Below, piece by piece: positions 7,529 through 59,029 of a stretch of 64,000 bases of DNA. Below the pieces are notes generated by a model. The model was not told where the DNA came from, made no database searches, and was given only the letters and a program-made list of their open reading frames with translations. This DNA comes from a virus: IMG/VR virus record IMGVR_UViG_3300047476_001812, positions 1 to 64,000 of that record. One strand, given 5' to 3'. Made by a program: the position numbers and the translations under genes. The stretch's first letter is position 1. The number at the start of each line of letters is the position of its first letter.

Positions 7529-7553
7529 TCACCACAAATAAGGCGTTAGCCTT
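7529..7553 (-). promoter_or_regulatory. class A hairpin element
   Basis: TCAC-N10; AAGGC-GTTA-GCCTT. Confidence 0.75.
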
Positions 7554-7608
7554 GTATTTTTATTCTACAATGGTTAATTCCACAAAGACGTTATAGCGGT
7601 AAAACACT

Positions 7609-7860
7609 GTGAGTAAAAATGTAAAGTTTAAGTCTGTTAATCTACATCCTAGAGTCATAGAGAAAATAGACAGACTACCAGGACATTCTTATACCCAAAG
7701 AATAGAGTGGGCGTTGAATGCCTTGGAAGTTAAAGCTAATACAACAGAAACTAAAATGAGCTATGACGAGTTAATAGATTACGTCATAGCTCAAAGTAAG
7801 ATTCAGTGCAAAGAAAAGGTATTAGGGCTAATTGTGGGATTGCTCAGGTGTTTTCTTTAG
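7609..7860 (+). CDS. small putative DNA-binding protein
   Basis: ribbon-helix-helix-like N-terminus (FKSVNLHPRVIEKID). Confidence 0.45.
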   Translation: MSKNVKFKSVNLHPRVIEKIDRLPGHSYTQRIEWALNALEVKANTTETKMSYDELIDYVIAQSKIQCKEKVLGLIVGLLRCFL

Positions 7861-7864
7861 TAGA

Positions 7865-8098
7865 CTAATCCATTTCATTAAAACATTGAACTTCGCCTAT
7901 TGGCACAAAGACAGTTAACCCATCCTTGTCTTTAAGCCATAGCCCTGAATTAGAGCTAAAGACGTATTCAAAAACATCTCCTATTTCATATCCTGGGGAA
8001 ACTTTTTGATTTAGATGGCTTCTTGATACTCTGTAACTTGCATCTTCAGCACCGCTAGGGGTGATTTTCTTTAAATTGCAGGTTGTTTCAAATTGCAT
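7865..8098 (-). CDS. hypothetical protein
   Basis: GGAG RBS. Confidence 0.6.
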   Translation of the reverse strand: MQFETTCNLKKITPSGAEDASYRVSRSHLNQKVSPGYEIGDVFEYVFSSNSGLWLKDKDGLTVFVPIGEVQCFNEMD

Positions 8099-8236
8099 AA
8101 CTACTCCATTCTGGCTATAAATAATTCGCCAGCCCTAATAGGGAGTATTGTTTGAGGTAATACCTCGGTCGTTTGTTTTGGGCATCTATTAGCTTTAACT
8201 AAATTACCCCACCTAATAGGCATTGCGACATGAGGG

Positions 8237-8572
8237 TTATTCTAACACATCTTCAGACACTTCCTTCAAAACGGATAAGTTGAAGTTTAATTGTTGACCA
8301 TCGGCAGAAGCCATAAAATCTTCTATCTGATTAATTAAGTCTTTGGCATACTTAAAAATGCTTTCACTGTCAGCATAGTCAAACTGGGGATATGTTTCTT
8401 TGGCAAAATAATAGTTGCGCTCTAGGTGAATTAAGTCTATTCCCAAAATGCCCCCGTTAGGACTAAGTAAATAAATAGACCATTCTCGGTATTGCAAATC
8501 TGGTTTACTGTCACTTAGTGGAGCAATACCCATAGAGAATTTATCTCTAATTTGCTTTTCTAGTTCTGTCAT
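8237..8572 (-). CDS. hypothetical protein
   Basis: 111-aa ORF. Confidence 0.6.
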   Translation of the reverse strand: MTELEKQIRDKFSMGIAPLSDSKPDLQYREWSIYLLSPNGGILGIDLIHLERNYYFAKETYPQFDYADSESIFKYAKDLINQIEDFMASADGQQLNFNLSVLKEVSEDVLE

Positions 8573-8850
8573 AACTTTATATTTTGCCCCAATTACTTTT
8601 ATCCGCTACGTCCCAAAATTGACCTCCCGTAATCCCATCGTCAGTGAAAATCAATGTAATTTTTTTGGTTTTTACACTGAAAACTACAAAGTATTTTTTA
8701 TTCCTAATCTTCATTATGTACCTCCAGTTCACGTCTATCCCCCAATTATTGCTAATTGGGGGTGTTCTATAATCTTTTTCAGGAATTAGTCTATAACGGG
8801 CATTTTTGCCTTTATTAAAGGTTAGGGAGTGAAAGTTTGCAGCAGTAGAT

Positions 8851-9415
8851 TTAATCTACTATTAAAATCTCAGCCTCTACCATCAATCTTTCAGCCCATA
8901 AGATAAAAGGCAACATTCCGTCATGGTATGCTTGGGGCGTACCAACAGTTGCATACCAGTTGTCGTAGTCAAGTCTTTCTTTTACGGCTACGCCTTTTAA
9001 GATTTTTATGACTGGACAAGGAAAAGTATCTCCATTTTGGATTATGGCTTCTTTTCTTATATGGAAATCTCCACCTGGACAACCAGGAGATTGCTCCCAA
9101 AGATTACAAGACAAAACCCACTGATGGAGTTCAGGGTATTGAGATAACTCAAACTCGTATTCATTCGCCGCATACCTTCCTTTGTAATGTTTTGCGACGT
9201 TACCTTTGGGGTCGAAAGATACTCCATTAATGGAGATGTGAGTGCATTCTTCTTTAGGTGCGTGTACTTTTTCAATCACTTTCTTGTAACCCCCTTTACC
9301 CATGTGAATGGTGTCAGTCATAAAATTACTATCTGACTGCTTAACTGAAATAGTGTCAGCAACGTAGCGGCTAACTTCAGCATATTTGAAAATGGAAATT
9401 TCTGGATAAATCATC
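8851..9415 (-). CDS. hypothetical protein (start revised to 9415)
   Basis: AGGAG RBS before ATG 9415; the longer ORF would run through the class A element. Confidence 0.65.
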
Positions 9416-9437
9416 TTAACTACTCCTAATTTTACTT

Positions 9438-9462
9438 TCAAAAAACATTCAGGCGTTAGCCT
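9438..9462 (-). promoter_or_regulatory. class A hairpin element
   Basis: TCAA-N11; AGGC-GTTA-GCCT. Confidence 0.7.
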
Positions 9463-9488
9463 TGTTCTTCCCTTGACAAACAACTTAG

Positions 9489-9896
9489 TCAATCAAAAAT
9501 GTCCTGATTAACTAAAATGGGTTCAGCTAAATGGTCAAACTGTTTTAGACAGTCATCCCATGACATTACTTTTTCTGAAGACTGCTCCAACCCATAACCT
9601 TGAGTACCAAATCCAGATGAGCAATAAATAAACTCTTTTGTGAAAGGGTGAAATCTTACACCATGCCAGTAACAGTAGCCAGAAGAAGATTTCTCCTTAA
9701 CCTGACACAAAATTGCTAATGGTGTACAGATTAAATCCTCTTCATCCCTATACTGCCATTCGTACATATAGCATCTGGGAATAAAGTAAGAAATATCCCT
9801 TTGCTCTATTCTTTCAACTTTCCAGTCTTTTGGTAGACTTAAGGTTTCTTTAAGTTGAATTGTATCTTGTCGTTTGATTTCTTCAACGTTTGGCAT
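9489..9896 (-). CDS. hypothetical protein
   Basis: AGGAG RBS; degenerate class A element at 9924-9948. Confidence 0.7.
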   Translation of the reverse strand: MPNVEEIKRQDTIQLKETLSLPKDWKVERIEQRDISYFIPRCYMYEWQYRDEEDLICTPLAILCQVKEKSSSGYCYWHGVRFHPFTKEFIYCSSGFGTQGYGLEQSSEKVMSWDDCLKQFDHLAEPILVNQDIFD

Positions 9897-9940
9897 TTTA
9901 ACTACTCCTAATTAGTTTTACTCTGACCAATGCTAATGCG

Positions 9941-10348
9941 TTAGCCTTGTTCTTTTTTCTTTGGGTAAACAAACTTTACTGGCTTACCATACTCTTTTAC
10001 CTGAATAGGCTTAGGAAGTTGATTACCATATTGTAAGACAAACCAGCAATAAAACTCATTGAGGACACATTCTTTGTTTAACTTTTTGAATTGCCTTCTA
10101 GTCCAAGATTTATATTCCCTAAAAAAGAGAACCTCTTGACCTTTATAACATTCTATTACAGCCCTAACTTTACTTCCAGTAGTATTGAGTGAAAGCTCAA
10201 AGTAAGAATCAGGAAATCTGTTGTCAATTTGGCAATACTCAACATAAGTTTTACCAAAGTGTTTTACAAAGAAATTTAGGGTGATGCCTTTCACCCCAAT
10301 CTTAAAACTACCATCATAGTGGTAGGAATCTATTTCAGTTATTTGCAT
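9941..10348 (-). CDS. hypothetical protein
   Basis: 135-aa ORF. Confidence 0.6.
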   Translation of the reverse strand: MQITEIDSYHYDGSFKIGVKGITLNFFVKHFGKTYVEYCQIDNRFPDSYFELSLNTTGSKVRAVIECYKGQEVLFFREYKSWTRRQFKKLNKECVLNEFYCWFVLQYGNQLPKPIQVKEYGKPVKFVYPKKKEQG

Positions 10349-10457: not shown

Positions 10458-10883
10458 TCATCTTCTAATCCCCCAATTTTCCAGCTTTAAAAGTTTTCTT
10501 GCTGTTAGTATTTCGTCTATAGAAAGACAAATGCGTTCAGGTGCAGAAGAGTCTTGTGTGGGGGTTTCTAATTTGCACCACCACCAATAACCTCCAATAC
10601 CATGAGGTCTATCTACCAAAAAGCAAGATGAAGAATCAGATGCCAGAACTTTAATTAACAGTTTATGGCTTTTTAATTGTTCTACAACAGCCTCTACCAT
10701 CTTTGATTGAATCCAGCACTCAATGTCAAAAACATCAAGTTCGCCTTTTAGATGTTTCTCAACACCTTCTTTAAGTGCATATATTAAAGACGGCTCAATA
10801 AGTATCCCCCTGCTCTCGTATGCAGCCATATTAGACATTATGTAATCAAAAAGAATGTGTTTCTTTGTTTGTGTTGAAGCCAT
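10458..10883 (-). CDS. hypothetical protein
   Basis: 141-aa ORF, class A element upstream. Confidence 0.65.
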   Translation of the reverse strand: MASTQTKKHILFDYIMSNMAAYESRGILIEPSLIYALKEGVEKHLKGELDVFDIECWIQSKMVEAVVEQLKSHKLLIKVLASDSSSCFLVDRPHGIGGYWWWCKLETPTQDSSAPERICLSIDEILTARKLLKLENWGIRR

Positions 10884-11240: not shown

Positions 11241-11484
11241 TCCTTTTTTTAATTGCTATCTTGATTGAGCCAAAAAGCTGTTGTTCATTACTTTCTCTGA
11301 TGCCAAATACTTCACCTTTATAGTGAACAACAGCCATGTACTTACCATCAAAATAACCACCAGCTATGTCAGCAACTTCGGGTTTTATAGGTTCAAACTT
11401 TTCTTCTTCCATTAGTTCCTGAAATAGGTTTAAAGCCAACCTTAACGCCCCTAGAAACTTTAGCAACTTTGCCAACATCTTCAC
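11197..11484 (-). CDS. hypothetical protein (true start probably near 11412)
   Basis: ORF overlapping gp157-like gene end. Confidence 0.5.
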   Translation of the reverse strand: MKMLAKLLKFLGALRLALNLFQELMEEEKFEPIKPEVADIAGGYFDGKYMAVVHYKGEVFGIRESNEQQLFGSIKIAIKKRSEFDNDLRRNSNND

Positions 11485-11989: not shown

Positions 11990-12012
11990 TCACCAACACT
12001 AAGGCGTTAGCC
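11990..12012 (-). promoter_or_regulatory. class A hairpin element
   Basis: TCAC-N10-GCGTTAGC. Confidence 0.7.
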
Positions 12013-12069
12013 ATTTATTCAACTAGTTAAATAATTAAGGGAGACCTTGTAGCCTCCCTTGTGGTTTAT

Positions 12070-13012: not shown

Positions 13013-13038
13013 TCACAATTGAAGGGGCAATCGCCCCT
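13013..13038 (-). promoter_or_regulatory. class A hairpin element, AATC-loop variant
   Basis: TCAC-N10; AGGGGC-AATC-GCCCCT. Confidence 0.7.
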
Positions 13039-13109
13039 ATAGCCTTGAGGGAAGTACAGACAAATTAAAAGGGAACTTCGTGCTTCGCAAAGCTAAAGCT
13101 AAAGCTCCC

Positions 13110-13132
13110 TCACAACCACTAAGGCGTTAGCC
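13110..13132 (-). promoter_or_regulatory. class A hairpin element
   Basis: TCAC-N10-GCGTTAGC. Confidence 0.7.
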
Positions 13133-13135
13133 GCC

Positions 13136-13747: not shown

Positions 13748-13945
13748 TTATTCGACTTCAGTCCAACCAGGTTCGATGAAGTTAGAAATCCATTCTTGAA
13801 CGTAATTATCAAGAATCTCTTCAATTTGTTTGGGATTCAATTTAGACCACTCTTCCTCTGAATAACCCAGTTCATCTATGTTAACCGTGTCTTCATGAAT
13901 TGCACTAGCAAACCCCGTCTTGCAGTATAATTTGTACGTTTTCAT
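13748..13945 (-). CDS. hypothetical acidic phage protein
   Basis: 65-aa ORF followed by terminator-like hairpin. Confidence 0.65.
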   Translation of the reverse strand: MKTYKLYCKTGFASAIHEDTVNIDELGYSEEEWSKLNPKQIEEILDNYVQEWISNFIEPGWTEVE

Positions 13946-14211
13946 AATAAACTCAACTGATTCCCTAGAGTTTCCATCACCACTTCTCTGGCGTTAGCCA
14001 GTCTGTAATAAGATTTTTGCCCAGACTGAGAAAGTTTAGGCAAAGAACTACAACTACCTTCTCTCAGAATAAGAATATTACATCCCTTTTTCCGTAACTT
14101 GTGAACTGCATCACCGTATCTGGCATCAGCAATTTTGGAAAGCTCATCTGAGTAATGCCATTGACCATCTTGAAGAAGGTCTAGTAAAAGGTCTTGTTTA
14201 GTTTGCAACAT
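13942..14211 (-). CDS. winged helix-turn-helix protein
   Basis: LLDLLQDGQWHYSDEL...AVHKLRKKGCNI. Confidence 0.65.
   Translation of the reverse strand: MLQTKQDLLLDLLQDGQWHYSDELSKIADARYGDAVHKLRKKGCNILILREGSCSSLPKLSQSGQKSYYRLANAREVVMETLGNQLSLL
13977..14001 (-). promoter_or_regulatory. class A hairpin element (inside 3' end of upstream gene)
   Basis: TCAC-N10; CTGGC-GTTA-GCCAG. Confidence 0.7.
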
Positions 14212-14238: not shown

Positions 14239-14263
14239 TCACAATCACTAAGGCGTTAGCCTT
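14239..14263 (-). promoter_or_regulatory. class A hairpin element
   Basis: TCAC-N10; AAGGC-GTTA-GCCTT. Confidence 0.75.
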
Positions 14264-16170: not shown

Positions 16171-16194
16171 TCACCGCCCCCAAAGCGTTAGCTT
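16171..16194 (-). promoter_or_regulatory. class A hairpin element antisense to the initiator gene
   Basis: TCAC-N10; AAGC-GTTA-GCTT. Confidence 0.6.
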
Positions 16195-16257
16195 CCTTAA
16201 TACCTTTGCCCTGTGCTATCTTTAGATTAATGTAACAATTAGTCTGAAGATATCTTT

Positions 16258-16828: not shown

Positions 16829-16915
16829 TATTTATAGTAGCCTATGGTGTTTAATTCATAGGCTATTGCCTTATTTGTAGTGAAGATTAATAGCAAAATA
16901 AACAGGTTAACAGTT

Positions 16916-18950: not shown

Positions 18951-18974
18951 TCACAAACATTCAGGCGTTAGCCT
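18951..18974 (-). promoter_or_regulatory. class A hairpin element
   Basis: TCAC-N10; AGGC-GTTA-GCCT. Confidence 0.75.
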
Positions 18975-19110
18975 TGTTCTATTGCTTTCATTAGTCCTGA
19001 AATATTGGGATTTTCACCCCATAAACAGCCAAACTCTAGGGAGAGCTTTTCGAGTTCGGCTTTGTAATCCGGGGAGACAGAGAGCATAACGCTCTCTGAC
19101 TTTCTAGACA

Positions 19111-19874: not shown

Positions 19875-19982
19875 TTTCTCAACTACTCCTAATTTATTTA
19901 GTACCGATTCAAACCATTTTCTCGACATCAAGAAAATGGTTATCTCCAAAACTACTAAGGCGTTAGCCGTTGTTTCCTAAGA

Positions 19983-20804: not shown

Positions 20805-20829
20805 TCACTACCAGTTGGGCGTTAGCCCA
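20805..20829 (-). promoter_or_regulatory. class A hairpin element
   Basis: TCAC-N10; TGGGC-GTTA-GCCCA. Confidence 0.75.
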
Positions 20830-21194: not shown

Positions 21195-21219
21195 TCACCA
21201 CCACTAAGGCGTTAGCCTT
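21195..21219 (-). promoter_or_regulatory. class A hairpin element
   Basis: TCAC-N10; AAGGC-GTTA-GCCTT. Confidence 0.75.
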
Positions 21220-21882: not shown

Positions 21883-21907
21883 TCAAAATCAAAGGGGCGA
21901 TTGCCCC
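21883..21907 (-). promoter_or_regulatory. class A hairpin element, GATT-loop variant
   Basis: TCAA-N10; GGGGC-GATT-GCCCC. Confidence 0.65.
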
Positions 21908-21949
21908 AATAATTATGAAAGGTGTTAACAAATTAACTTATATTCTTTG

Positions 21950-23601: not shown

Positions 23602-23634
23602 AAGTCCTGTTATAATTTAATTATAACAGGACTT
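23602..23634. repeat. perfect 15-bp inverted repeat in helicase leader
   Basis: AAGTCCTGTTATAAT-tta-ATTATAACAGGACTT. Confidence 0.85.
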
Positions 23635-23644: not shown

Positions 23645-23668
23645 TCACAGTTAGTAAAGCGTTAGCTT
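23645..23668 (-). promoter_or_regulatory. class A hairpin element
   Basis: TCAC-N10; AAGC-GTTA-GCTT (compensatory stem). Confidence 0.7.
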
Positions 23669-24326
23669 AGAACTCATCATCTTTAGCGTCTTTGCTTCCC
23701 ATTAAGATTACTTTGTTGGCATTAATCTTGATACCATTTCTGGGTTCACCAGTGGTCTTGTCTGCCCAAGTTTCAAAGACTAAAGTGCCTTCAATCCCAA
23801 GGTTCTCGCCTTTACGGCAATACCTTTCTATGGCTTCACCCTGCTTATTCCAAGCAGTAATGTTATAGAAATACCCCTTCCTTCTTTCACTAATTAAAAG
23901 CGAAGTCTGAATAAAAGATTTGCCACTTTCATAGATTCTCTTTTCAGGCATTTTCATCATCTTACCTGCAAGATAAATGGTATTGTAATTGACTTCTGCT
24001 TTGACTGGACAGACTGAGTGAGCCAGGATGTAGGGCTGTTCAATAACTTGTTTAGTTTCTTTATCTTTTTGCTCAGTAAACAATTGACCTGTAACAAGCA
24101 TTTTCATTCCTGGCTTAAATAAACTTAACCTGTCGGAGGTAATGCCAGAAAAGGTTTTGTCGTAGGAGTTATTAAATCCTTTGACGGATATTAAATGCTC
24201 TACAGGATTACCGTCTTTGTCAGCTTGAAGATAACTACACTGGGCAATGGAAAATGGTTGTTGCCCAGGAATGTCAGCAAAGGTTTCTACAAAGTTAACT
24301 GTGAGCGTAATGTTGATAATGTTCAT
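23667..24326 (-). CDS. ssb: single-stranded DNA-binding protein, probably two OB folds (start revised)
   Basis: NTIYLAG...NITAWNKQGE...KGENLGIEGTL..ETWADKTTGE, acidic DDEF tail. Confidence 0.85.
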   Translation of the reverse strand: MNIINITLTVNFVETFADIPGQQPFSIAQCSYLQADKDGNPVEHLISVKGFNNSYDKTFSGITSDRLSLFKPGMKMLVTGQLFTEQKDKETKQVIEQPYILAHSVCPVKAEVNYNTIYLAGKMMKMPEKRIYESGKSFIQTSLLISERRKGYFYNITAWNKQGEAIERYCRKGENLGIEGTLVFETWADKTTGEPRNGIKINANKVILMGSKDAKDDEF

Positions 24327-24370
24327 GGATTTAATTGGTAAGTGAGTAAAGAGGAAATGCAATAATTTCC

Positions 24371-24394
24371 TCACAAACATTTAGGCGTTAGCCT
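24371..24394 (-). promoter_or_regulatory. class A hairpin element
   Basis: TCAC-N10; AGGC-GTTA-GCCT. Confidence 0.75.
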
Positions 24395-24440
24395 GTTGAA
24401 ATTGTTTTTCAATTTCTTGAATAATTGAACTATCAGGAGT

Positions 24441-25756: not shown

Positions 25757-25781
25757 TCATAACTATTAATGCGTTAGCATT
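25757..25781 (-). promoter_or_regulatory. class A hairpin element
   Basis: TCAT-N10; AATGC-GTTA-GCATT (compensatory stem). Confidence 0.7.
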
Positions 25782-26095: not shown

Positions 26096-26120
26096 TCACC
26101 ACTAAAGGGGCGTTAGCCCC
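26096..26120 (-). promoter_or_regulatory. class A hairpin element
   Basis: TCAC-N10; GGGGC-GTTA-GCCCC. Confidence 0.75.
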
Positions 26121-32226: not shown

Positions 32227-34653
32227 CTACTTCACAACGTAAGCTTCGTTGTAACTTGGATGTCCTACGTTATTAAATCTTGTGTGAAGATGAACCGTAA
32301 TTTCATCTCCTAATTTAATAGGTGGCGTGTCCTTAACTGGGACTACACCAATGCTATAGCCATTGGACTTAGCAATGAAGTAATGCTTGCCGTCATTACC
32401 AATGCCTGACTCAATCTTCATGACAATAGCCTCACCTTTGAAGACTATTTCACGAAAATCTGAATATAGCCGTCCTACTATATTCAGTTTGTCAATTTTG
32501 AGAGTCTTAAGTTGTTCACATATCTGTTCTATACCTAATAGAAAACAGATATTAGTTGAGATGCCTACCCTGTCCTCATGCTCCTTTGCTTGAGGATTGG
32601 GAATCCCCGTTTTGTTGTTCCGGTGTTTGACATCCCAAAAGGCAGCCACAGCCATCATCCTCTGTGTAGGGGGTAAATGATTAAGTATTCCCTCATAGTA
32701 TCTGCAGATATCTTTTTGAGAAGATAACCTACGCTCTTTAATAATTCTGGGAACTCTCTTACCTGGATTATCTTCTTCCCACTTGCGCTGCTCTAATCCA
32801 GCAGCATACATGGCAGATGAGTATTCGGAAGACACGACTTCTGCCCTCTCAATCCATTTCTTACTAGGATTGAGATGTGAGAAAAGAATGTTAAAAGGTC
32901 TGAGATTGGTAGCCTTAAGTTCTGGGTAAACCCAAAACTTATTTATTTCAGCTACAAGCAGTCCTACGGTATCATTAGGACGTGATGACATCTGGGATGA
33001 CATATAGCAGTCGTCATTTTTGACCTGCTTCAACCAATCAACTCTTTCAGACTTGAGAGCATTACCGATATCATCTAGCAACTTCCTGTTAGGTGGTGTA
33101 GCACCTTTGAGGGAGTCTACTGCCGCTTGCAGCTGCGGCACTAACTGAAATACAAAGTCCTCACGTTTACAAGCCCAGGATTTGGCTATGTAGTATGTGA
33201 TAAGACCAGTCAAGTTTTCCATTGACTTAACCAGGATTTGCCCTAGAGTCCCTTCAATGGGAATCTTCTTAGGTTTTAACCCTGCTTGGTCTAAGTCAGG
33301 TTCACCGAAGTTCTTGACTGCCTGAGCTACGTTAGGTAGAGTTGATGCAGGTAGCCACATAAGGAAATCCCCATCTGTGTCACGCCCCAGTTTCATTAAG
33401 GTATTGCAGTTACCTACAATAATCCCCTCCATCTGCTCCCATTTAGGCAAGACTTTATTTGTCCATACCTTAATATCATATTTCCATCTACAAGGATAGG
33501 GGAATACGATTACCTCTTCACCGTCAGGAAGTCCTGGGATATAACAGCAGTCATCTGGCAACTCCTCGTCTGGCATTACCATAGAGGAGTTAAATTTCAT
33601 CCCACCAGATGTAGCTATCTCGCGCCACCGTCGGGATAGCATTCCCATAGTTGCCTTGATAACCCAAGGGTGGGTAGACAACTGACCGTGTACGTCAGAC
33701 TTTAAAATCTGACTTAACCGAGATTCACTAACCTCACTAAACTCCTCGCTTTCATCCCCTTTCCGCAGGAGATACGCTAACAATTTCTGAGGATTGTTGA
33801 CTAAGATATTTAACTCCTGTGCTCTCATTTGCGCTACGGGAACTATATCTTTCTGTACACAATCCCAAGGAAGGAACTGTACTACTGAGTATGAAAGATT
33901 GGACTTACGGAAGTCCCACCCCATTGCATACCGTTCAATAATCTCGGTATCAGTCTCTTCGACCTCAATAAGTCTGGACTTTCTAGACGGAGATTTAAAC
34001 ACCACACCAAAAGCCAATTTAGGAAGTGTATACTCCCCAGGTTTAACTTTATTGCCTTTGAAACAGGACGTAGGTAAAACAAGGTCATACTTACCTTTCT
34101 TAAACCCCACTGCAATTGTACCCTTTGCACACCAATCAGGGTACATATTGAAAGCCCTAAACTGGAATGGATTGAATATGGAATCCACAAACTCCATAGC
34201 AAACTTCTCAGAGCATTTCCCGTGGCAATCCCCAGTCCTATATTTCTTGGACTTGGCATCACCGTCATTAACAACTAAGAGTTTGATGGCAATATCCTTA
34301 ATCAACTTACATTCAGTAGTCAGGTTAGAACCGTAGTTGGCAGCATTCATATTGCTACCAAAGAATCGAGTAAAGCAATTAAGTTCTGAGGTAGAATAGA
34401 TTGCTTTACCTTCTTTCCTAGAGCCTGAACCACCAACTAATACATAGTCTTCAAAGCCTTTGTCAAGAACTTCAGAGATGTATTCTAAGTCAGGATTTTC
34501 ATCAGCTAATAAACTACCCACATCACCGATAGCAAACTTAACGTCAGGGAATAGATGCCCCAACATCGTATTGTGATATGTGCTTTGGCAATGCTCTGGT
34601 AGCCACTGTTGACTAACTAGGTCGTATTGCCTTAGAATAAGCTTAGATGGCAT
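32227..34653 (-). CDS. single-subunit RNA polymerase, YonO/cellular RdRP (double-psi beta-barrel) family
   Basis: catalytic GRDTDGD (DxDGD, ~33367-33387) preceded by GDCHGKCS, PFQFR..KG and FPYP, matching RdRP motif order; later ENLTG and QAAVDSLK. Confidence 0.8.
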   Translation of the reverse strand: MPSKLILRQYDLVSQQWLPEHCQSTYHNTMLGHLFPDVKFAIGDVGSLLADENPDLEYISEVLDKGFEDYVLVGGSGSRKEGKAIYSTSELNCFTRFFGSNMNAANYGSNLTTECKLIKDIAIKLLVVNDGDAKSKKYRTGDCHGKCSEKFAMEFVDSIFNPFQFRAFNMYPDWCAKGTIAVGFKKGKYDLVLPTSCFKGNKVKPGEYTLPKLAFGVVFKSPSRKSRLIEVEETDTEIIERYAMGWDFRKSNLSYSVVQFLPWDCVQKDIVPVAQMRAQELNILVNNPQKLLAYLLRKGDESEEFSEVSESRLSQILKSDVHGQLSTHPWVIKATMGMLSRRWREIATSGGMKFNSSMVMPDEELPDDCCYIPGLPDGEEVIVFPYPCRWKYDIKVWTNKVLPKWEQMEGIIVGNCNTLMKLGRDTDGDFLMWLPASTLPNVAQAVKNFGEPDLDQAGLKPKKIPIEGTLGQILVKSMENLTGLITYYIAKSWACKREDFVFQLVPQLQAAVDSLKGATPPNRKLLDDIGNALKSERVDWLKQVKNDDCYMSSQMSSRPNDTVGLLVAEINKFWVYPELKATNLRPFNILFSHLNPSKKWIERAEVVSSEYSSAMYAAGLEQRKWEEDNPGKRVPRIIKERRLSSQKDICRYYEGILNHLPPTQRMMAVAAFWDVKHRNNKTGIPNPQAKEHEDRVGISTNICFLLGIEQICEQLKTLKIDKLNIVGRLYSDFREIVFKGEAIVMKIESGIGNDGKHYFIAKSNGYSIGVVPVKDTPPIKLGDEITVHLHTRFNNVGHPSYNEAYVVK

Positions 34654-34801: not shown

Positions 34802-34826
34802 TCAATCCTATTTAGGCGTTAGCCTA
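34802..34826 (-). promoter_or_regulatory. class A hairpin element upstream of the RNA polymerase gene
   Basis: TCAA-N10; TAGGC-GTTA-GCCTA. Confidence 0.75.
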
Positions 34827-35020: not shown

Positions 35021-35344
35021 AACTTAACTCAAATTAACTCAAAACTGATTAGGCGTTAGCCTTGTTCAGTTTGAGGGCGCAAGGTGCATTGAAATTTCAA
35101 TGCAAAAGCCCTTGCAGCCTTATAATTTTTACATTCTGCTACCCTGCCATCAGGGTAGACAATATGCCATTCTGTCGCATTTAAGATAACATCCGGAGGA
35201 ATGTTATCTTGTGGACTATAATAAATCATTAACAAGAAACTCCCTTTCTGTGTACAAAAAGCTTCTCATTAATTTTAAACTACAGTCGTTTAAATGGAAA
35301 CATTTCGCGAGATATTTTCTGTCAATTCCCTCGTCGCTATCATT

Positions 35345-36432: not shown

Positions 36433-36457
36433 TCACTATTAATGGGGCAATCGCCCC
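36433..36457 (-). promoter_or_regulatory. class A hairpin element, AATC-loop variant
   Basis: TCAC-N10; GGGGC-AATC-GCCCC. Confidence 0.7.
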
Positions 36458-36678
36458 TATACTTTTGATGGTTTAACTACCGAATCCAAGCAACGCATTT
36501 ACTGGAAAATCTATTTTCTTTTTTATATTGTTGTTATTAGCTTGTGTGTCTAATCTAATTGCACTAGGGGCAACTAAATATCTATTATCAAGTTGTTGTT
36601 TTTTCATAACTCACCTGTTTATTTTGCCGAATATATTATACCATAGAGCAAGCAAAATAAACAGTGGTTGGTTAAATA

Positions 36679-38286: not shown

Positions 38287-40248
38287 ATGACATTTAGGAT
38301 ACCAACACTTACATCTGCTGATGACGTTGCTGTATGGTTGAGTGGGGCAAAACAACAGCTTGATGATTACTTTGTTCAGCTACCCGCTTCTCATTATGAT
38401 GAGTTTTTCTCGCATCTTCCTGCCGCTGAACAATTAGTAGAAGCACAGGCAATGAGAAATGCAGAACAAAAAAACTATTTGCTAGAAATAGAAAGACAAG
38501 CTAAAAGATTTGGGTACAAACCAGAAAGAAGAAGAGTTGAAGAAGCAGTATCAGGTGGTGACATAGATACGGAATTTGTTCCTGAAAATGCTCCAGTTAA
38601 TTCTCAAGCACGTTCTGCTAAAGCTCCTCAAGGTGCAATCCGAATTGAAGGTGATATTTTTATGCCTTTAGAAGAAGAGCAAGCAATGAGAGAGCAGTTC
38701 AGAGGAAAAGGAAATGCTTTCTTTGATGAATTAAAAAAGAGAGGGTTAATTCAAGTATTAACTCCTGAAGGAAATAGGGTAGTTCCAAAGAAGTATGCAA
38801 TTTTTGATGAAACACTAGGAGAAAGAGGTAGGTATACTCTCAAGCCTGAAGTCCAATCGTATTTAGAATCCAGGAAAGTCAATACTCCTCAAGGTGTAGT
38901 AAGTCAACCCATTGCTGAAACCCCTCTTGTACAATCGTCTCCTCTTCCCAATAATGCTGAATCCGAAGCAACCTTAAATGATTTAGATAATCTCTTTTTA
39001 AACTCACAAACTCAACCTACCCCCCAAGAAGTTCCGGGAACTGTAACAACTATCTCTACAGATAATGGGGCAATTGCCCCAGACGTTGTGAGCGTATTAT
39101 CAACACAGCCGGGGTTTAGTGTAGTTCCAGAACCCGTATCTTATAGCCCACTACCCATACCAGAAGGAACTCCTGAGAGTGGTATTAATCGTAGTGTTTA
39201 CCCTGGAAGTAAAGCTGTATCTACTTCTTCCGGTATTCCTATGAGTGGAGGTGGTGGGAGTATTCCCCCTAAACCCCCCACAGGTGGTGGTAACTATGAC
39301 TTTGATGGGGAAGAGTTTAACCGTCAGAATAACTACACTCCTTACGGTGGCACACCCAACCATCCAGAAATACCAGGATTAAATGACCCTGTAGATGCTG
39401 ACGCAAATCTTAAATGGTTATGGGAAAGAAATCAACGAGAAACGCAAGCCCGTCAACAATATCTAAACGACAAGGCAAGACAAGTGGCTGATACTGGTAG
39501 TTGGTGGGGGAATGTATGGGATGGAGTTGGTAGAGGTTTTAATTATTCTGTTGAAGCTGGCAGAATGCCTGGTAGAACGGCATCTGTAATATGGAATCGC
39601 GCACCTAAAAAAGAATATGAACATCTTACTCCTGAAGGTAAAGCAGCTTTTTTTGGTGGCAGGGTTGCTGGAGAAATAGGTAATGGAACTAAACAAGTAT
39701 TATGGGAACTACATCCTGATGACTTTACCGCTACCCATTCTGTAAGAGCAGTTAGAGAGTCCGGTGGTAATCGTATAGCTCAAGTTTTGATACCTTATAT
39801 GACAACAACCGCATTGCAGCTAGGGTCACAAACCTATAACCCATTTAACCTGGGTGAAGGCGGTAGGGTTGCAGGATATCAAGCTATTAATCCTGATGAG
39901 GATGACCCACGTATTTCTACATCACCAGTGAGTGAGTTATTAATTGACAGAGGATTGTTAGGTAGAAGAGGTAAGCTACTTCCTTGGGAGCAATTTAGAC
40001 AAGAAAGAACTGATATCCCCTATGAACAGTATCAGAAGTATCAAGACTATTTACGTAATAAAGATGATAACTTCCTAAGAGATGCTACCGGGGGACTAAT
40101 TAAGGGGACTATGGATGGAATTAATGGACCAGAGTTGTCAGTGATGGGTTATTCTGTCACACCTACTGGGGCGTTAGCCGCCGGGGCTGCACTGTTAGCG
40201 GGTAGGGAATTAGTTAGAACAGGAAGAATAGCAGGGTTAAGGAAGTAA
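38287..40248 (+). CDS. probable internal virion protein
   Basis: 653 aa, P/G-rich linker, C-terminal Ala/Gly helix. Confidence 0.55.
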   Translation: MTFRIPTLTSADDVAVWLSGAKQQLDDYFVQLPASHYDEFFSHLPAAEQLVEAQAMRNAEQKNYLLEIERQAKRFGYKPERRRVEEAVSGGDIDTEFVPENAPVNSQARSAKAPQGAIRIEGDIFMPLEEEQAMREQFRGKGNAFFDELKKRGLIQVLTPEGNRVVPKKYAIFDETLGERGRYTLKPEVQSYLESRKVNTPQGVVSQPIAETPLVQSSPLPNNAESEATLNDLDNLFLNSQTQPTPQEVPGTVTTISTDNGAIAPDVVSVLSTQPGFSVVPEPVSYSPLPIPEGTPESGINRSVYPGSKAVSTSSGIPMSGGGGSIPPKPPTGGGNYDFDGEEFNRQNNYTPYGGTPNHPEIPGLNDPVDADANLKWLWERNQRETQARQQYLNDKARQVADTGSWWGNVWDGVGRGFNYSVEAGRMPGRTASVIWNRAPKKEYEHLTPEGKAAFFGGRVAGEIGNGTKQVLWELHPDDFTATHSVRAVRESGGNRIAQVLIPYMTTTALQLGSQTYNPFNLGEGGRVAGYQAINPDEDDPRISTSPVSELLIDRGLLGRRGKLLPWEQFRQERTDIPYEQYQKYQDYLRNKDDNFLRDATGGLIKGTMDGINGPELSVMGYSVTPTGALAAGAALLAGRELVRTGRIAGLRK

Positions 40249-44360: not shown

Positions 44361-44386
44361 TCACCATCATTAAGGCGTTAGCCTTA
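44361..44386 (-). promoter_or_regulatory. class A hairpin element
   Basis: TCAC-N10; TAAGGC-GTTA-GCCTTA. Confidence 0.75.
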
Positions 44387-45621: not shown

Positions 45622-45646
45622 TCACTGCTCCTGGGGTGTTAACCCC
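45622..45646 (-). promoter_or_regulatory. class A hairpin element with T-A closing pair
   Basis: TCAC-N10; GGGGT-GTTA-ACCCC. Confidence 0.65.
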
Positions 45647-48405: not shown

Positions 48406-48474
48406 AACTACATCAAACTAAATAGGGGCGTAGCCCCCATGTTTCAAACTTCACAAATAATTAGGCGTTAGCCT
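48406..48474 (-). promoter_or_regulatory. adjacent class B (48406-48440) and class A (48451-48474) elements
   Basis: GGGGC-GTA-GCCCC with AACTAC at N16; TCAC-N10-GCGTTAGC. Confidence 0.75.
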
Positions 48475-48575
48475 TGCCCCCTATTCTTAGTATAAAAACA
48501 CTAGGAATAGGGGGCTTCCAGTCAATTACCTGCCTGAACCGCGTTCCATAAGAAACTCCATTTATTGCTAATACT

Positions 48576-48600
48576 TCAATTCTAATGGGGCAATCGCCCC
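48576..48600 (-). promoter_or_regulatory. class A hairpin element, AATC-loop variant
   Basis: TCAA-N10; GGGGC-AATC-GCCCC. Confidence 0.65.
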
Positions 48601-50569: not shown

Positions 50570-50644
50570 TTTCTTTTTCTCCGATTAGTTAATTTCCACC
50601 AAAAGTAATTAGGCGTTAGCCTTGTACTTGCTAACGCCAACCAA

Positions 50645-52434: not shown

Positions 52435-52484
52435 ATACTTAACACTTCACTACTTATAAGGCGTTAGCCCTGTACTTTGTATGC

Positions 52485-55472: not shown

Positions 55473-55718
55473 TTAGTAACTGTAAGTACCTACGCACTCA
55501 CCGTCCAGGTAGACATCTACTACATAGCTTTTGTCCCCTATGCGGGTTTTTCTAGTTTTGATATCAATGTTGGCGTTGTCAGGTATTTCCCCAACAATAC
55601 CTTTAATCTTGTCTATCTGCTCCCAATTCTGGGAATACCCCTGTAGCTGTTTCGCCCACATGGGACGATTGTCCTGACGACCTTCGCTTTCAAACACACC
55701 GTTATCTAAATCAAACAT
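55473..55718 (-). CDS. hypothetical protein
   Basis: GAGG RBS; class B at 55739-55788 and class A at 55801-55824. Confidence 0.65.
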   Translation of the reverse strand: MFDLDNGVFESEGRQDNRPMWAKQLQGYSQNWEQIDKIKGIVGEIPDNANIDIKTRKTRIGDKSYVVDVYLDGECVGTYSY

Positions 55719-55738
55719 AACCAAATCCTCAATACGTT

Positions 55739-55824
55739 AACTACAACAAAACTAAAGGGGCGTAGCCCCCATAAAAAACCAACATTAGACAAAGCTAACA
55801 TCAAAACCTATCAGGCGTTAGCCT
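55739..55824 (-). promoter_or_regulatory. adjacent class B and class A elements
   Basis: AACTAC-N15, GGGGC-GTA-GCCCC; TCAA-N10-GCGTTAGC. Confidence 0.75.
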
Positions 55825-55867
55825 TGTCCATGCGAAGGACAAACGGGGGAATTTAACCCCCAGGAAG

Positions 55868-57491: not shown

Positions 57492-57538
57492 TAGACAGGG
57501 CGTAGCCCACATAAAAAAAGGGGCAATTGCCCCTGTAC

Positions 57539-58102
57539 TTATGACTTAGAAAGTCTCATAGCCTCCTCGTTAGGAGAATACTTGAAACCGCAAGATTCAA
57601 GTAACTCACGTAGGTTCAGATTAATGCGAGTGTCGTAATAGAAGGCGATATTGCCTTCTATAGAGTTGATTGCCATTTCAATGAAGGTCTTTAGCTTGAG
57701 GTCTAAGTTATCTTGAGCTAACCACCATTTATGGTCATTGAGGTCGTCCCCACTAGCAGGGACTTCCTGTCCATTCACTTTAATAGAGAGCAGTTGCTCT
57801 CCTGTTAGTGGGCAAACCTCAAGATGGACTTTGATGGATTCACCCAGATTAACCTTGCCTTGGTTGGCAAGGGTTCTTTCGCAAATTGCATCCAAGACCT
57901 TTGGAGGAATTTCCTCCACAAAGAATTCACATCTATTTAGCCGATTGATACTCCAGCGCTGCTGGAATTTGCAGCGGTGGTGTTGTAAATAGGCACACAA
58001 TTTGTCCCCTAAATAGCTGGGGACGCATACCATGTAAGCAGGTATGCGAGATGAACATTTCCACTCAGGGATATACAAAACCTCAAATCTTGGGTCAGAC
58101 AT
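57539..58102 (-). CDS. hypothetical early-type protein
   Basis: 187 aa; class B element upstream; terminator-like GGGGC-AATT-GCCCC plus U tract downstream. Confidence 0.7.
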   Translation of the reverse strand: MSDPRFEVLYIPEWKCSSRIPAYMVCVPSYLGDKLCAYLQHHRCKFQQRWSINRLNRCEFFVEEIPPKVLDAICERTLANQGKVNLGESIKVHLEVCPLTGEQLLSIKVNGQEVPASGDDLNDHKWWLAQDNLDLKLKTFIEMAINSIEGNIAFYYDTRINLNLRELLESCGFKYSPNEEAMRLSKS

Positions 58103-58116
58103 AACAAAACCTGGTT

Positions 58117-58158
58117 AACTACGCCAATTGGTTGGGAGCGTAGCGAACATAAAAAAAA
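58117..58158 (-). promoter_or_regulatory. class B hairpin element
   Basis: AACTAC-N15-GCGTAGCGAACATAAAAAAAA. Confidence 0.78.
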
Positions 58159-58186
58159 GGGAATGGATAAACCACTCCCTAATAAG

Positions 58187-58474
58187 TTAGAACCCAACCA
58201 ATGGGTCATACGACCCAATCATAAGTTCATTCCATAAGTCGTACTCAGCCTGAGTTAGTTTGAACGTCCTGCGAAGTTCAAGATATTGAAGAATATCTTG
58301 AAGAGTTACCCATCTACTCTCAAGAATCTCTGAACATTGTTGAATGGAAAAAGGAACGTGATATTCAGGATGTTCTTGGTCTGGAAGAATATCCAGGTCA
58401 ACGAGTGACTGCATAACGGCGGCTAAGTCACTTTCTGATAGTGTAGAAAGAAATTCCGTAAACATATTAAGCAC
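58187..58474 (-). CDS. hypothetical acidic protein
   Basis: 95 aa. Confidence 0.65.
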   Translation of the reverse strand: MLNMFTEFLSTLSESDLAAVMQSLVDLDILPDQEHPEYHVPFSIQQCSEILESRWVTLQDILQYLELRRTFKLTQAEYDLWNELMIGSYDPLVGF

Positions 58475-58480
58475 CTTGTC

Positions 58481-58520
58481 AACTACACCAATTGGTTGGG
58501 AGCGTAGCGACCCATAAAAA
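58481..58520 (-). promoter_or_regulatory. class B hairpin element (rightmost)
   Basis: AACTAC-N15-GCGTAGCGACCCATAAAAA. Confidence 0.78.
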
Positions 58521-58595
58521 CATTTATTGGTTAAAAATTGAGGGCATCACCCCCTTTTTTCTTTTGGTTAAAATAATATATATAGATTAGGTTTG

Positions 58596-58678
58596 CCCCC
58601 TCAAATATATATAAATAATATAGTGACGTTATTGAAACTTCCCCCTCAAATATATATAAATAATATAGTGACGTTATT
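58596..58678. repeat. 38-bp perfect direct repeat x2 (45-bp period)
   Basis: CCCCCTCAAATATATATAAATAATATAGTGACGTTATT at 58596 and 58641. Confidence 0.9.
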
Positions 58679-58796
58679 CAAATTTATAAGGTCAAAAAAA
58701 TATATATAAAACTGTACACATACGCAAAAGAAAATATCCACCCTAACTCGCATAGGATGGATAAAGTGAAGTAGTTAAAGTGTATTCTTATAGTTC

Positions 58797-58940
58797 CTAA
58801 AAACCATAATGTAAATAACGGTTTTCAACTGAGTTGAGATATTCGTTTTCATAGTATTCGTCTTCTTCTATTTCCAGTTGTAGGGACGTAATAACATCAG
58901 CAAATAGATTGAGAGTTTTGTCAAGAAGTAGCGTAGTCAT
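58797..58940 (-). CDS. 47-aa acidic peptide (not in ORF track)
   Basis: MTTLLLDKTLNLFADV...; class A element at 58960-58984 directly upstream. Confidence 0.55.
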   Translation of the reverse strand: MTTLLLDKTLNLFADVITSLQLEIEEDEYYENEYLNSVENRYLHYGF

Positions 58941-59029
58941 AAATCACAAATTACAAACATCACCACTTCTAAGGCGTTAGCCTTTGTAATAGGAAAACTA
59001 CTGCAAGCAAAACAAATACAGGATTTAAA

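Follow-up and report, generated by a model that had tools for sequence, protein, structure and literature searches.

The class A elements of this genome, that of a complete ~79.7-kb phage of an uncultured, cyanophage-like lineage, are probably template-strand hairpin promoters at which the phage's own 808-aa RNA polymerase would initiate. Because the genes run leftwards, the + strand is the template, and on it the element reads 5'-TCAC-N7-(4-5 bp stem, GTTA loop)-3', with an invariant core, GCGTTAGC, that belongs to the d(GCGNNAGC) type of DNA mini-hairpin. GCGTTAGC occurs 37 times in the window (the whole 64,000-nt stretch analysed), 32 of them on the + strand, against a shuffle expectation of 0.58 and a maximum of 3. 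In the whole genome, 26 of 36 occurrences are preceded by a TCA whose T stands exactly 16 nt ahead of the loop G, that is TCAN-N10-GCGTTAGC. One of the 26 is a terminal duplicate, and the non-redundant set of 35 genome copies gives 25/35 against 0.66 expected (p = 1e-35), which bears out the rigid 10-nt spacing between box and GCGTTAGC claimed in a preliminary description of this DNA. For TCAC combined with a fully paired 5-bp stem and 4-nt loop, the spacer peaks sharply at 7 (n=15), with 0-2 cases at each other spacer and 2 on the opposite strand. A position weight matrix (PWM) finds 35 GTTA-loop copies genome-wide, 33 of them on the + strand (a bias of 33:2) and about 28 within the window, so that the earlier figure of ~35 copies was fair. 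Bare GCGTTAGC at 941, 26189, and 49004 lacks the box and lies within ORFs, and these three are therefore probably not elements. The elements, their variants, and three relevant genes are as follows.

152..176 (+), class A: TCAT, N7, AGTGC-GTTA-GCCCT, PWM score 32.7; heads the minus-strand gene spanning the circular junction (79538-79858) and recurs at 79901 through the 191-nt overlap of the contig ends
7529..7553 (+), class A: AAGGC/GCCTT; box 29 nt before the ATG of 7062-7499(-)
9439..9463 (+), class A with degenerate box CAAA: stem AGGC/GCCT; ATG with AGGAG ribosome site 24 nt downstream
9924..9948 (+), class A with box TGAC: 27 nt before 9489-9896(-); hairpin overlaps the upstream gene's stop codon
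10923..10947 (+), class A: TTGGC/GCCAA; 39 nt before 10458-10883(-)
11990..12014 (+), class A: Gp157-like gene 11393-11962(-) 27 nt downstream; immediately upstream of the element is a terminator-like hairpin distinct from it (12060-12037)
13013..13048 (no strand assigned), palindromic variant with class A box and spacing: GGGGC-AATC-GCCCC; TCAC on the left, mirrored TTGA on the right
13110..13134 (+), class A: 155 nt before the DUF5895 gene 12070-12954(-)
13977..14001 (+), class A: CTGGC/GCCAG; 31 nt before 13748-13945(-)
14239..14263 (+), class A at a divergent junction: AAGGC/GCCTT; heads the minus-strand unit beginning 13942-14211(-)
16171..16195 (+), orphan class A: AAGC/GCTT; antisense-pointing between two + strand genes; kept, with better pairing (GAAGC/GCTTC), in a relative whose polymerase is 81% identical (the 81% relative)
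16859..16883 (-), sole convincing reverse copy: TCAC-N7-AAGGC-AATA-GCCTA; ahead of the + strand DnaB helicase gene
18951..18975 (+), class A: 37 nt before 18353-18913(-)
19946..19970 (+), class A with box CCAA: ATG of 19506-19949(-) 17 nt downstream
20805..20829 (+), class A: TGGGC/GCCCA; 22 nt before 20375-20782(-)
21195..21219 (+), top-scoring class A: PWM score 46.1; 45 nt before 20808-21149(-)
21883..21918 (no strand assigned), palindromic GGGGC variant: GGGGC-GATT-GCCCC; 40 nt before 21225-21842(-)
23645..23669 (+), class A: AAGC/GCTT; 63 nt before the UvrD-type helicase gene 21950-23581(-)
24371..24395 (+), class A: ATG of the SSB gene (23667-24380, -) 44 nt downstream
25757..25781 (+), class A: AATGC/GCATT; differs by a compensatory double change from its orthologue in the 81% relative, AAGGC/GCCTT
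26096..26120 (+), class A: GGGGC/GCCCC; 18 nt before 25766-26077(-)
34802..34826 (+), class A: TAGGC/GCCTA; RNA polymerase gene 148 nt downstream
35039..35063 (+), class A: 18 nt before 34838-35020(-), in the leader region of the polymerase operon
36433..36468 (no strand assigned), palindromic GGGGC variant: between divergent 36022-36372(-) and 36528-36692(+), with boxes on both sides; may be bidirectional
40157..40181 (+), orphan class A: within the + strand gene 38287-40248; kept in relatives
44361..44385 (+), class A at a divergent junction: TAAGGC/GCCTTA; 22 nt before 44012-44338(-)
45622..45646 (+), class A with innermost pair changed: GGGGT/ACCCC (GGGGC/GCCCC in the 81% relative); 18 nt before the HAD/PNK phosphatase gene 44992-45603(-)
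48451..48475 (+), class A: 144 nt before 47140-48306(-)
48576..48600 (+), palindromic GGGGC variant: TCAA-N7-GGGGC-AATC-GCCCC
50599..50623 (+), class A with box CCAA: 29 nt before 50285-50569(-)
52447..52471 (+), class A: ATG of a 73-aa minus-strand ORF 12 nt downstream
55801..55825 (+), class A with box TCAA: 76 nt before 55473-55724(-)
58960..58984 (+), class A at a divergent junction: ATG of a 47-aa minus-strand ORF 19 nt downstream
23667..24380 (-), phage SSB: PF00436, E 1.8e-16; phrog_44
32227..34653 (-), two-barrel single-subunit RNA polymerase, 808 aa: proposed reader of the class A elements
37623-38285 (+), sigma-70 region-2 protein: PF04542, E 1e-14 to 1e-16

The stems named in the preliminary description were recovered at 7540, 14250, 10934, 13988, 20816, 16183, 23657, 25768, 26107, 34813, 44371, and 45633, and its view that the flanks co-vary holds. 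In this genome, stem pairs 3, 4, and 5 are paired in 31/33 (p = 0.0002), 25/33 (p < 0.0001), and 19/33 (p = 0.001) copies, respectively, and no pairing was found for pairs 6 and 7 in the covariation test, so the stem is 4-5 bp long. A wider set, 66 distinct copies drawn from relatives as well as this genome, was compared with 500 shuffles: paired cells amount to 88.5% against 78.0%, double-change cells to 41 against 12, and the covariation score to 0.300 against 0.109, with 0/500 shuffles reaching any observed value and every slid register scoring below the true one. The fifth pair is unpaired in 29/66 copies, which weighs against the polymerase-promoter reading.

Class A elements mark the heads, not the tails, of minus-strand units. 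Thirty of 35 are intergenic (6.6 under random placement), 24/67 minus-strand ORFs but 0/48 plus-strand ORFs have an element within 160 nt upstream, and, after start-codon refinement, about 30/35 elements have a co-oriented start 12-160 nt downstream. Divergent junctions carry an element in 11/16 cases and convergent junctions in 1/17 (Fisher p = 2.3e-4). As first described, the genes preceded encode SSB, a UvrD-type helicase, a weak Gp157-like protein, an HAD/PNK phosphatase, and RNA polymerase, and these would be genes of the middle class. The one good reverse copy (16867) precedes dnaB on the + strand. Four copies (16187, 40173, 62241, and 72273) have no credible gene downstream, which tells against promoter function, and assembled RNA contigs, which are unable to show starts, bridge some elements.

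It is decidedly unlikely that the hairpin instead works as RNA at the end of the upstream gene, to terminate, process, or stabilise its transcript, with the box as a separate downstream signal (a terminator-promoter cassette). Many copies do lie between co-directional genes (17/41 minus-minus junctions), some hairpins overlap the stop codon of the upstream gene, and the covariation fits an RNA fold equally well, since pairing statistics alone cannot separate the two folds. However, 11 copies sit at unit heads with no upstream gene to terminate and 1 at tails, and the transcribed strand of the elements lacks U-tracts; these observations uphold the initial preference for promoters over terminators. 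In a terminator-like scan over 20 kb, only one class A hairpin passed on the transcribed (minus) strand. As RNA, the loop would read UAAC or UNNC, which is no known stable tetraloop, whereas the DNA strand obeys the GCGNNAGC rule; wobble pairs are not enriched, and the rigid hairpin-to-box spacing favours a single unit. The relevant structure is probably a single-strand mini-hairpin of the template strand and not a symmetric cruciform.

The strand bias also suits + strand priming sites for DNA replication, modelled on the GCGTTAGC and GCGAAAGC mini-hairpins of the St-1, alpha3, and G4 origins; those of St-1 and alpha3 contain the identical mini-hairpin sequence (PMC13037366). DnaB is present in the phage and no DnaG, Toprim, or Prim-Pol primase is detectable, so some enzyme must make primers. 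Priming sites, however, need not avoid ORFs, precede start codons by 12-160 nt, flip with gene orientation (16867), or be absent from + strand gene blocks, and this function is very unlikely.

The 808-aa protein, earlier labelled RNAP, is a genuine two-barrel RNA polymerase of the QDE-1/RDR2/YonO kind. Its DxDGD motif (D425, D427, G428, D429) is invariant across 25 homologues, its Atlas clusters carry the name RdRP, and its AlphaFold2 model (pLDDT 86.8) has as top Foldseek matches RDR2 and QDE-1 (E 1e-15 to 1e-13), P74-26 gp62, P23-45-type gp64, and crAss-like gp66. No T7-like polymerase was found in this genome. The presence of the sigma-70 region-2 gene weighs against the 808-aa polymerase as reader: host RNA polymerase, redirected by a phage factor such as this protein, could read the elements, with the hairpin arms as an activator site or unusual upstream element, and the positional evidence for promoter function suits any polymerase. 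This is nevertheless unlikely, as the hairpin and box centres lie ~16 nt apart and not the ~23 nt of -35/-10 centres, nothing further upstream of the elements is conserved, and sigma binding gives no reason for stem changes to compensate one another or for the middle loop bases to vary freely while G..A stays fixed. The sigma gene itself sits in a + strand block without elements, and sigma-70-like sites are not enriched over shuffled sequence (56 against 57.8).

Relatives at 81-88% polymerase identity retain the elements, with compensatory changes at orthologous sites. Across 18 orthologous pairs with the 81% relative, identity is 0.94 in the box and 0.98 in the inner stem and loop, but 0.63 in the spacer and 0.54-0.68 in the flanks, with 0/18 spacer indels. 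Spacer length is thus rigid though its sequence drifts, and with co-varying flanks this supports the original reading of a structure plus a box. A complete 75.7-kb relative with a 47%-identical polymerase carries GCGTTAGC 20 times forward and 0 in reverse, with the box one nucleotide closer (N6), and relatives use the mini-hairpins GCGGTAGC, GCGTAAGC, and GCGATAGC. Three lineages with 23-27% identical polymerases (L157, L158, and L195) possess box, spacer, and hairpin 40-50 nt ahead of a ribosome site and ATG, on the opposite strand to the polymerase gene; with GGTA, GTAA, GATA, and GTTA as loops, they keep only the loop G..A and closing C:G. Against the polymerase as reader, most of the distant contigs that bear the polymerase show no such element, and the co-occurrence of element and polymerase is among related phages, which have other genes in common too.

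Conservation at orthologous positions, not scattered, also bears on whether the elements are duplex-DNA binding sites of a dimeric phage regulator, or a selfish repeat that plays no part in expression. In favour, the motif is an inverted repeat, and the GGGGC variants form extended palindromes flanked on either side by boxes; these variants lack GNNA loops, which, like a second hairpin class on the same strand (a GCGTAGC triloop, 13 copies), counts against a polymerase promoter. Class A itself has no such symmetry, its loop being non-palindromic and its box present on a single side, and half-site readout does not predict compensatory changes, making a regulator site or selfish repeat highly improbable.

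In the favoured promoter model, negative supercoiling, possibly with phage SSB, would allow the template strand to fold into an exceptionally stable mini-hairpin, and by analogy with N4 the SSB may be the cofactor that keeps hairpins extruded. The polymerase, whose relatives favour single-stranded templates, would dock on the hairpin shape and contact the loop G and A and the GGC/GCC upper stem. The fixed 7-nt spacer would then bring the C/A of the template's TCAC box to the active site, RNA would begin with a purine (GUGA or GA), and the transcript would run leftwards through a 12-160 nt leader bearing the ribosome-binding site. Mini-hairpins of the d(GCGNNAGC) type are extraordinarily stable (Tm 69.5 C for GCGTTAGC and 83.5 C for its three-base-pair-stem version; PMC13037366), and for crAss-like gp66 and QDE-1 single-stranded DNA is a far better transcription template than duplex (bioRxiv 2020.03.07.982082).

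Among known systems, the primase origins of G4, St-1, and alpha3 carry d(GCGNNAGC) and d(GCGNAGC) mini-hairpins, and the class A core is exactly GCGTTAGC; there, however, the phage genome is single-stranded and the hairpin marks one priming site or a few, whereas in this double-stranded phage it recurs ahead of genes, with a TCAC box coupled to it. The AR9/PBS2 non-virion RNA polymerase is likewise a non-canonical two-barrel enzyme that reads its promoter on the template strand, but it is multisubunit and recognises a linear, uracil-containing motif without a hairpin. SPbeta YonO, P23-45 gp64 and gp96, and phi14:2 gp66 belong to the same superfamily as the polymerase here, and no hairpin promoter for this superfamily is reported in the papers searched. 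P23-45 likewise has numerous short motifs conserved ahead of phage genes, with one class for each polymerase, but these are sequence motifs rich in either AT or GC, and the P23-45 paper never uses the word hairpin. Unlike class A, the YonO promoter is undefined in the literature and gp66 early transcripts share no common motif (bioRxiv 2020.03.07.982082). The closest likeness in logic is to the N4 virion polymerase, which reads a template-strand hairpin and then a single-stranded start site, requires supercoiling and SSB (PMC13492108), and has GCGGAGC or GCGAAGC in its promoters (PMC13037366). N4 early promoters and class A share a small GC-closed template-strand DNA mini-hairpin with a sheared G-A type loop, a fixed short distance to a single-stranded start region with a template C, and a structure that outweighs lower-stem sequence. 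They differ in loop (3 nt, GGA or GAA, in N4; 4 nt, GNNA, in class A), stem (5-7 bp against 4-5 bp), and spacer to the box (about 4 nt counted in the N4 P2 promoter oligo sequence, against 7 nt). N4 has three hairpin promoters of this type, unlike the about 30 copies here ahead of most minus-strand genes. The enzyme superfamily differs too, the N4 enzyme being a T7-like right-hand polymerase and the present one two-barrel and QDE-1/YonO-like; a hairpin-promoter design otherwise known only from N4 would thus be used by an unrelated polymerase.

Class A elements are probably template-strand mini-hairpin promoters, and their candidate reader is a two-barrel RNA polymerase encoded by the phage itself. 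The window contains 37 copies of the core of the element, GCGTTAGC, and 32 of these are on the + strand; shuffled sequences give an expectation of 0.58. Across the whole genome, 26 of 36 GCGTTAGC occurrences have a TCA with its T exactly 16 nt ahead of the loop G; once the terminal duplicate is removed, this holds for 25 of 35 non-redundant copies versus 0.66 expected (p = 1e-35), which bears out the claim of the preliminary description that exactly 10 nt separate a TCA(N) box from GCGTTAGC. A search for TCAC ahead of a hairpin with five perfect base pairs and a 4-nt loop returned 15 cases at a spacer of 7, 0-2 at each of the other spacers in the range 0 to 15, and 2 on the opposite strand. 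The + strand consensus reads (T)TCAC-cACtAnT-aaGGC-GTTA-GCCtt-g, and weaker conservation extends up to five bases to the left of the box. The core is kept in 32 of the 33 class A copies, the sole exception being GTGTTAAC, and 33 of 35 GTTA-type copies lie on the + strand.

The stem variants listed in the preliminary description were all found in their places, and its proposal that the stems co-vary was subjected to permutation. Within the genome, Watson-Crick pairing is present in 31, 25 and 19 of 33 copies at stem pairs three, four and five, respectively (p from 0.0002 to 0.001 by within-genome permutation). No pairing was found at pairs six and seven, and the structure is therefore a stem of 4-5 bp with a 4-nt loop. 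A wider set of 66 distinct copies, drawn from this genome and its relatives, showed 88.5% paired cells versus 78.0% after shuffling, 41 cells changed on both sides versus 12, and a covariation score of 0.300 versus 0.109; pairing thus exceeds that of shuffled flanks, as none of 500 shuffles reached the observed value of any of these measures, and every slid register scored worse than the true one. Compensatory change is also seen at orthologous sites in a relative with an 81% identical polymerase, where AATGC/GCATT (25773) is replaced by AAGGC/GCCTT and GGGGT/ACCCC (45638) by GGGGC/GCCCC. Across 18 orthologous pairs from the same comparison, identity is 0.94 in the box, 0.98 in the inner stem plus loop, 0.63 in the spacer and 0.54-0.68 in the flanks, the core values being somewhat inflated since the pairs were picked for the motif in both genomes; the spacers contain 0 indels. 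Nearest-neighbour DNA folding gave only -4 to -7 kcal/mol, alike on both strands, with parameters that miss mini-hairpin stability, and counts of G-T versus A-C mismatches did not discriminate among DNA, plus-sense RNA and minus-sense RNA folds.

Elements are concentrated at the starts of minus-strand genes. Thirty of 35 GTTA-type copies are intergenic or at an ORF edge, compared with 6.6 (maximum 15) under random placement, and an element lies within 160 nt upstream of 24 of 67 minus-strand ORFs versus 0 of 48 plus-strand ORFs. Following a search for small or mis-started ORFs, a co-oriented start codon was located 12-160 nt past the box in approximately 30 of 35 copies, often with a ribosome-binding site in between. 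The sole convincing reverse-oriented copy, at 16867, stands directly ahead of the + strand DnaB gene. Genes behind elements encode SSB, a UvrD-type helicase, a weakly matched Gp157-like protein, DUF5895, a HAD/PNK phosphatase, a LAGLIDADG nuclease and the polymerase operon, in agreement with the earlier proposal that the elements precede replication and metabolism genes. The 'middle' timing of these genes is a guess from gene content. Four copies (16187, 40173, 62241 and 72273) are orphans without a credible downstream gene.

Features of the genome (window coordinates unless stated)
16171-16195 and 40157-40181: orphan elements of full class A form, antisense into plus-strand genes, no downstream ORF
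16880-18265, + strand: DnaB-type helicase gene
23602-23634: perfect hairpin with a 15-bp stem, past a class A box and ahead of the helicase start codon, in the predicted 5' leader
25710-25737: perfect hairpin with an 11-bp stem, past a class A box and ahead of the start of gene 24966-25706, in the predicted 5' leader
26129-31984, - strand: 1951-aa ORF, directly downstream of the polymerase gene
32227-34653, - strand: 808-aa ORF, the polymerase
37623-38285, + strand: 220-aa sigma-like protein, in a plus-strand block
65626-65656 of the genome, past the window (1626-1656 of L147, a further stretch of the same genome): class A element, with a minus-strand LAGLIDADG nuclease gene (PF14528, E 1e-11) 60 nt on

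The two orphans listed are both kept in relatives and could be antisense promoters or elements of another role.

The placement of the elements is promoter-like, the opposite of what is expected of terminators. Where neighbouring ORFs of 75 aa or more meet, a + oriented element is present at 11 of 16 divergent junctions, which are heads of minus-strand units, versus 1 of 17 convergent junctions, which are tails (Fisher p = 2.3e-4), and this contrast is decisive for promoter versus terminator. Intrinsic termination was rejected on this position at heads rather than tails and on the lack of a T-run or U-tract, the transcribed strand past the hairpin reading A-n-T-A-G-T-G-G-T-G-A. In a terminator-like scan of 20 kb, just one of the hairpins flagged on the transcribed (minus) strand belonged to class A, and a separate terminator-like hairpin (12060-12037) divides the end of a gene from the element that follows. 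A sigma-70-type promoter, with -35 and -10 hexamers 16-18 nt apart, was likewise rejected because the conserved blocks of class A are too close together; sigma-70-like sites in the scanned region numbered 56 versus 57.8 in shuffles, showing no enrichment. One run search gave matches to the phage, each only a small share, in two metatranscriptomes from freshwater and in two further runs; these consist of assembled contigs, in which cover is present and some contigs bridge elements, and the assembly shows no usable starts or ends. The overall observation of the preliminary description is confirmed and its interpretation, a recognised structure with a start-site box, is supported.

The source contig is a virus of 79,924 bases, of which the window is the first 64 kb, and its ends (window 1-191 and genome 79734-79924) repeat each other with 190 of 191 bases identical, so that the unit genome, circularly assembled or terminally redundant, is complete at approximately 79,733 bp. 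The database record is flagged linear and 57% complete despite this 191-base repeat. GC content is 36-41%. The genes are grouped in blocks, with most early-looking and replication genes on the minus strand and structural blocks on the plus strand. Its portal shares 38% identity with the portal protein of Synechococcus phage S-EIVl, beyond which megablast and tblastn against deposited phage genomes gave no match, and close relatives are found in metagenomes only. A genome-wide search for primase domains (DnaG zinc ribbon, Toprim_2 and Prim-Pol) detected none, and hairpin-directed initiation might therefore also supply replication primers. Of sigma-70, the 220-aa protein resembles region 2 alone (E 1e-14), region 4 not being detected, and it is a candidate late sigma factor.

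Pfam returned no match for the 808-aa ORF, with RdRP (PF05183) not above threshold; PF05183 is carried by one 40%-identical homologue in precomputed data. The family comprises 54 homologues in which D-x-D-G-D is kept, and D425, D427, G428 and D429 are invariant in 25 homologues. In a protein atlas the polymerase falls among clusters named RNA-dependent RNA polymerase, one of which is 80% viral. A Foldseek search with an AlphaFold2 model (mean pLDDT 86.8) matched maize RDR2 (E 1.8e-15) and Neurospora QDE-1 (6.5e-15), within matches of about 1e-15 to 1e-13 and with TM-scores (query) of 0.50-0.55 to these two, and also P74-26 gp62 and P23-45-type gp64, non-virion polymerases of P23-45-like Thermus phages, and gp66, the virion polymerase of a crAss-like phage. 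Given the DxDGD motif, the atlas clusters and the structure matches, the protein belongs to the YonO/QDE-1 type of single-subunit two-barrel RNA polymerase. It is the only recognisable polymerase of the genome; a search for a T7-like polymerase (PF00940) gave no match, and none in its control genomes either. The 1951-aa ORF, which has a hydrophobic C-terminal segment and is kept in relatives at 28-93% identity, has no match in Pfam, PHROGs, PDB (sequence and profile) or Atlas. It was considered as a possible second polymerase, and a scan found no DxDxD and no support for this role.

The association of element and polymerase was followed across relatives. The same elements occupy orthologous places in four contigs with 81-88% identical polymerases. 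In a complete relative of 75.7 kb, whose polymerase is 47% identical, GCGTTAGC is present in 20 forward and 0 reverse copies, the box is one base closer to the hairpin (N6), and 11 of 14 boxed copies sit 17-124 nt ahead of an ORF; MAFFT placed the N6/N7 gap outside the spacer. Three metagenome contigs of relatives (L157, L158 and L195) with polymerases only 23-27% identical exhibit the same architecture on the strand opposite the polymerase gene. In the nine copies of L157, an A-run leads to CTAC or TCAC as the box, and a gap of six or seven bases to AAGGC-GNNA-GCC, and all five of the GGTA-loop copies examined sit 40-50 nt ahead of a ribosome-binding site and ATG. Loops in these lineages are GGTA, GTAA, GATA and GTTA, so that the C:G closing pair is kept, as are the outer loop bases G and A, and the middle two loop bases vary. 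The element was not found in most other distant polymerase-bearing contigs. Across 76 relative loci, GCGN(1-2)AGC occurs 196 times on the strand opposite the polymerase gene versus 258 on the same strand, or 45 versus 40 when a third stem pair is also required, which is no general excess; the element, shown for several lineages and not for the whole family, is lineage-restricted. Among the matches listed in a pattern scan of viral contigs, most were single chance matches, and several copies occurred only in four close relatives. L006, a GC-rich contig of a relative with a 29% identical polymerase, has six identical triloop hairpins, TTTCC-GAC-GGAAA (1437, 6151, 7354, 11741, 16525 and 20853), mostly with a GAGAG-like box 4-6 nt on; comparison of these repeats with genes revealed no clear relation.

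Other motifs accompany class A in this genome. A variant hairpin, GGGGC-AATC/GATT/AATT-GCCCC, is present in nine copies with a TCAC-type box at class A spacing. The hairpin is palindromic, and many copies therefore have a box on both sides; three (36444, 68586 and 74576) lie between divergent genes. The loops are not GNNA, and the variants support a 'box plus hairpin' geometry over one fixed sequence. A second promoter-like class, with 13 minus-strand copies, has the form TTTTTATGG-n-CGCTACGC-n-CC, usually with GTAGTT 12-16 nt later. Every copy lies in the gene direction of small minus-strand genes, and two of them stand at the head of the polymerase operon. On the + strand the complement of the motif is GCGTAGC, a triloop mini-hairpin d(GCGNAGC) of the N4 promoter type. 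A further motif, GCAAAATAAAC (variant GCAAGATAAAC), usually sits about 10-16 nt ahead of start codons on both strands, in the place of a ribosome-binding site, and in some cases past a class A element; a translation signal is one candidate role, and a late promoter with a very short leader is another.

Positions of the further motifs
Second class, motif starts in minus-strand reading: 35383, 35465, 49704, 50265, 51410, 51687, 52207, 54618, 54892, 55775, 57515, 58153, 58518
GCAAAATAAAC/GCAAGATAAAC, + strand: 14467, 16893, 35511, 36652, 59007
GCAAAATAAAC/GCAAGATAAAC, - strand: 14237, 21866, 23594, 36627, 48330, 49584, and 68511 past the window

The class A core fits the GCG-NN-AGC rule of the d(GCGNNAGC) mini-hairpin, with two G:C pairs and a G and A that can pair in the sheared form, and the features kept across relatives, the G..A and the closing pair, are exactly those of this rule. 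The complement GCTAACGC lacks the G..A pair, and the special hairpin is thus confined to the + strand, the template for the genes that follow. An RNA copy of the element would have a UAAC or UNNC loop, which to our knowledge is not among the known stable tetraloops. A 2026 review gives GCGTTAGC a Tm of 69.5 C, and its three-base-pair-stem version 83.5 C; phages St-1 and alpha3 have GCGTTAGC at their primase-dependent origins, and N4 virion polymerase promoters contain GCGGAGC or GCGAAGC (PMC13037366).

The elements bear on how two-barrel polymerases like YonO and QDE-1 choose their start sites, given that no promoter is defined for YonO and that no common motif is seen for the virion polymerase of the crAss-like phage (bioRxiv 2020.03.07.982082). 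The candidate promoter is compact, at 25 nt, and comes in approximately 30 natural forms in this genome, to which relatives add N6 versus N7 spacing and other loops; this opens start-site choice to direct testing with a single recombinant protein and synthetic oligonucleotides. A broader proposal, held more tentatively, is that a whole clade of QDE-1/YonO-like single-subunit phage RNA polymerases reads extruded template-strand d(GCGNNAGC) promoters, so that N4-style recognition of promoters by their structure arose a second time, independently, in the other polymerase superfamily, with the hairpin type (tetraloop class A versus triloop GCGTAGC) writing the temporal programme. If the promoter reading of class A is true, hairpin promoters evolved twice, a long-known and biologically obscure DNA mini-hairpin is tied to transcription in a second system, and a new small promoter and polymerase pair becomes available for single-stranded templates.

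The best explanation of class A is the principle of coliphage N4 in a different polymerase superfamily, where it would be new. N4 vRNAP uses a template-strand hairpin followed by a single-stranded stretch with the start site, and requires supercoiling and SSB (PMC13492108); an SSB gene is present in this phage genome. The crAss-like gp66 and QDE-1 transcribe single-stranded DNA far better than duplex, and QDE-1 needs a single-strand binding complex (bioRxiv 2020.03.07.982082). From the N4 logic and this single-strand preference of its relatives, a hairpin-plus-start-box promoter would be mechanistically plausible for the two-barrel enzyme. As in N4-type promoters, an inverted repeat that can fold into a small hairpin lies on the template strand upstream of the gene, here as a GNNA hairpin on the + strand. 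N4 hairpins, however, combine a 5-7 bp stem with a purine-rich loop of 3 nt (GGA or GAA), whereas in class A the stem is 4-5 bp and the loop, GTTA, is 4 nt, and the triloop class GCGTAGC of this genome fits the N4 stem-loop form better than class A does. By our own count, four bases separate the stem from the template C at +1 in the N4 P2 promoter oligonucleotide, and seven separate the stem from the TCAC box in class A. The reader in N4 is a T7-like virion RNA polymerase, whereas the candidate reader here has a two-barrel fold.
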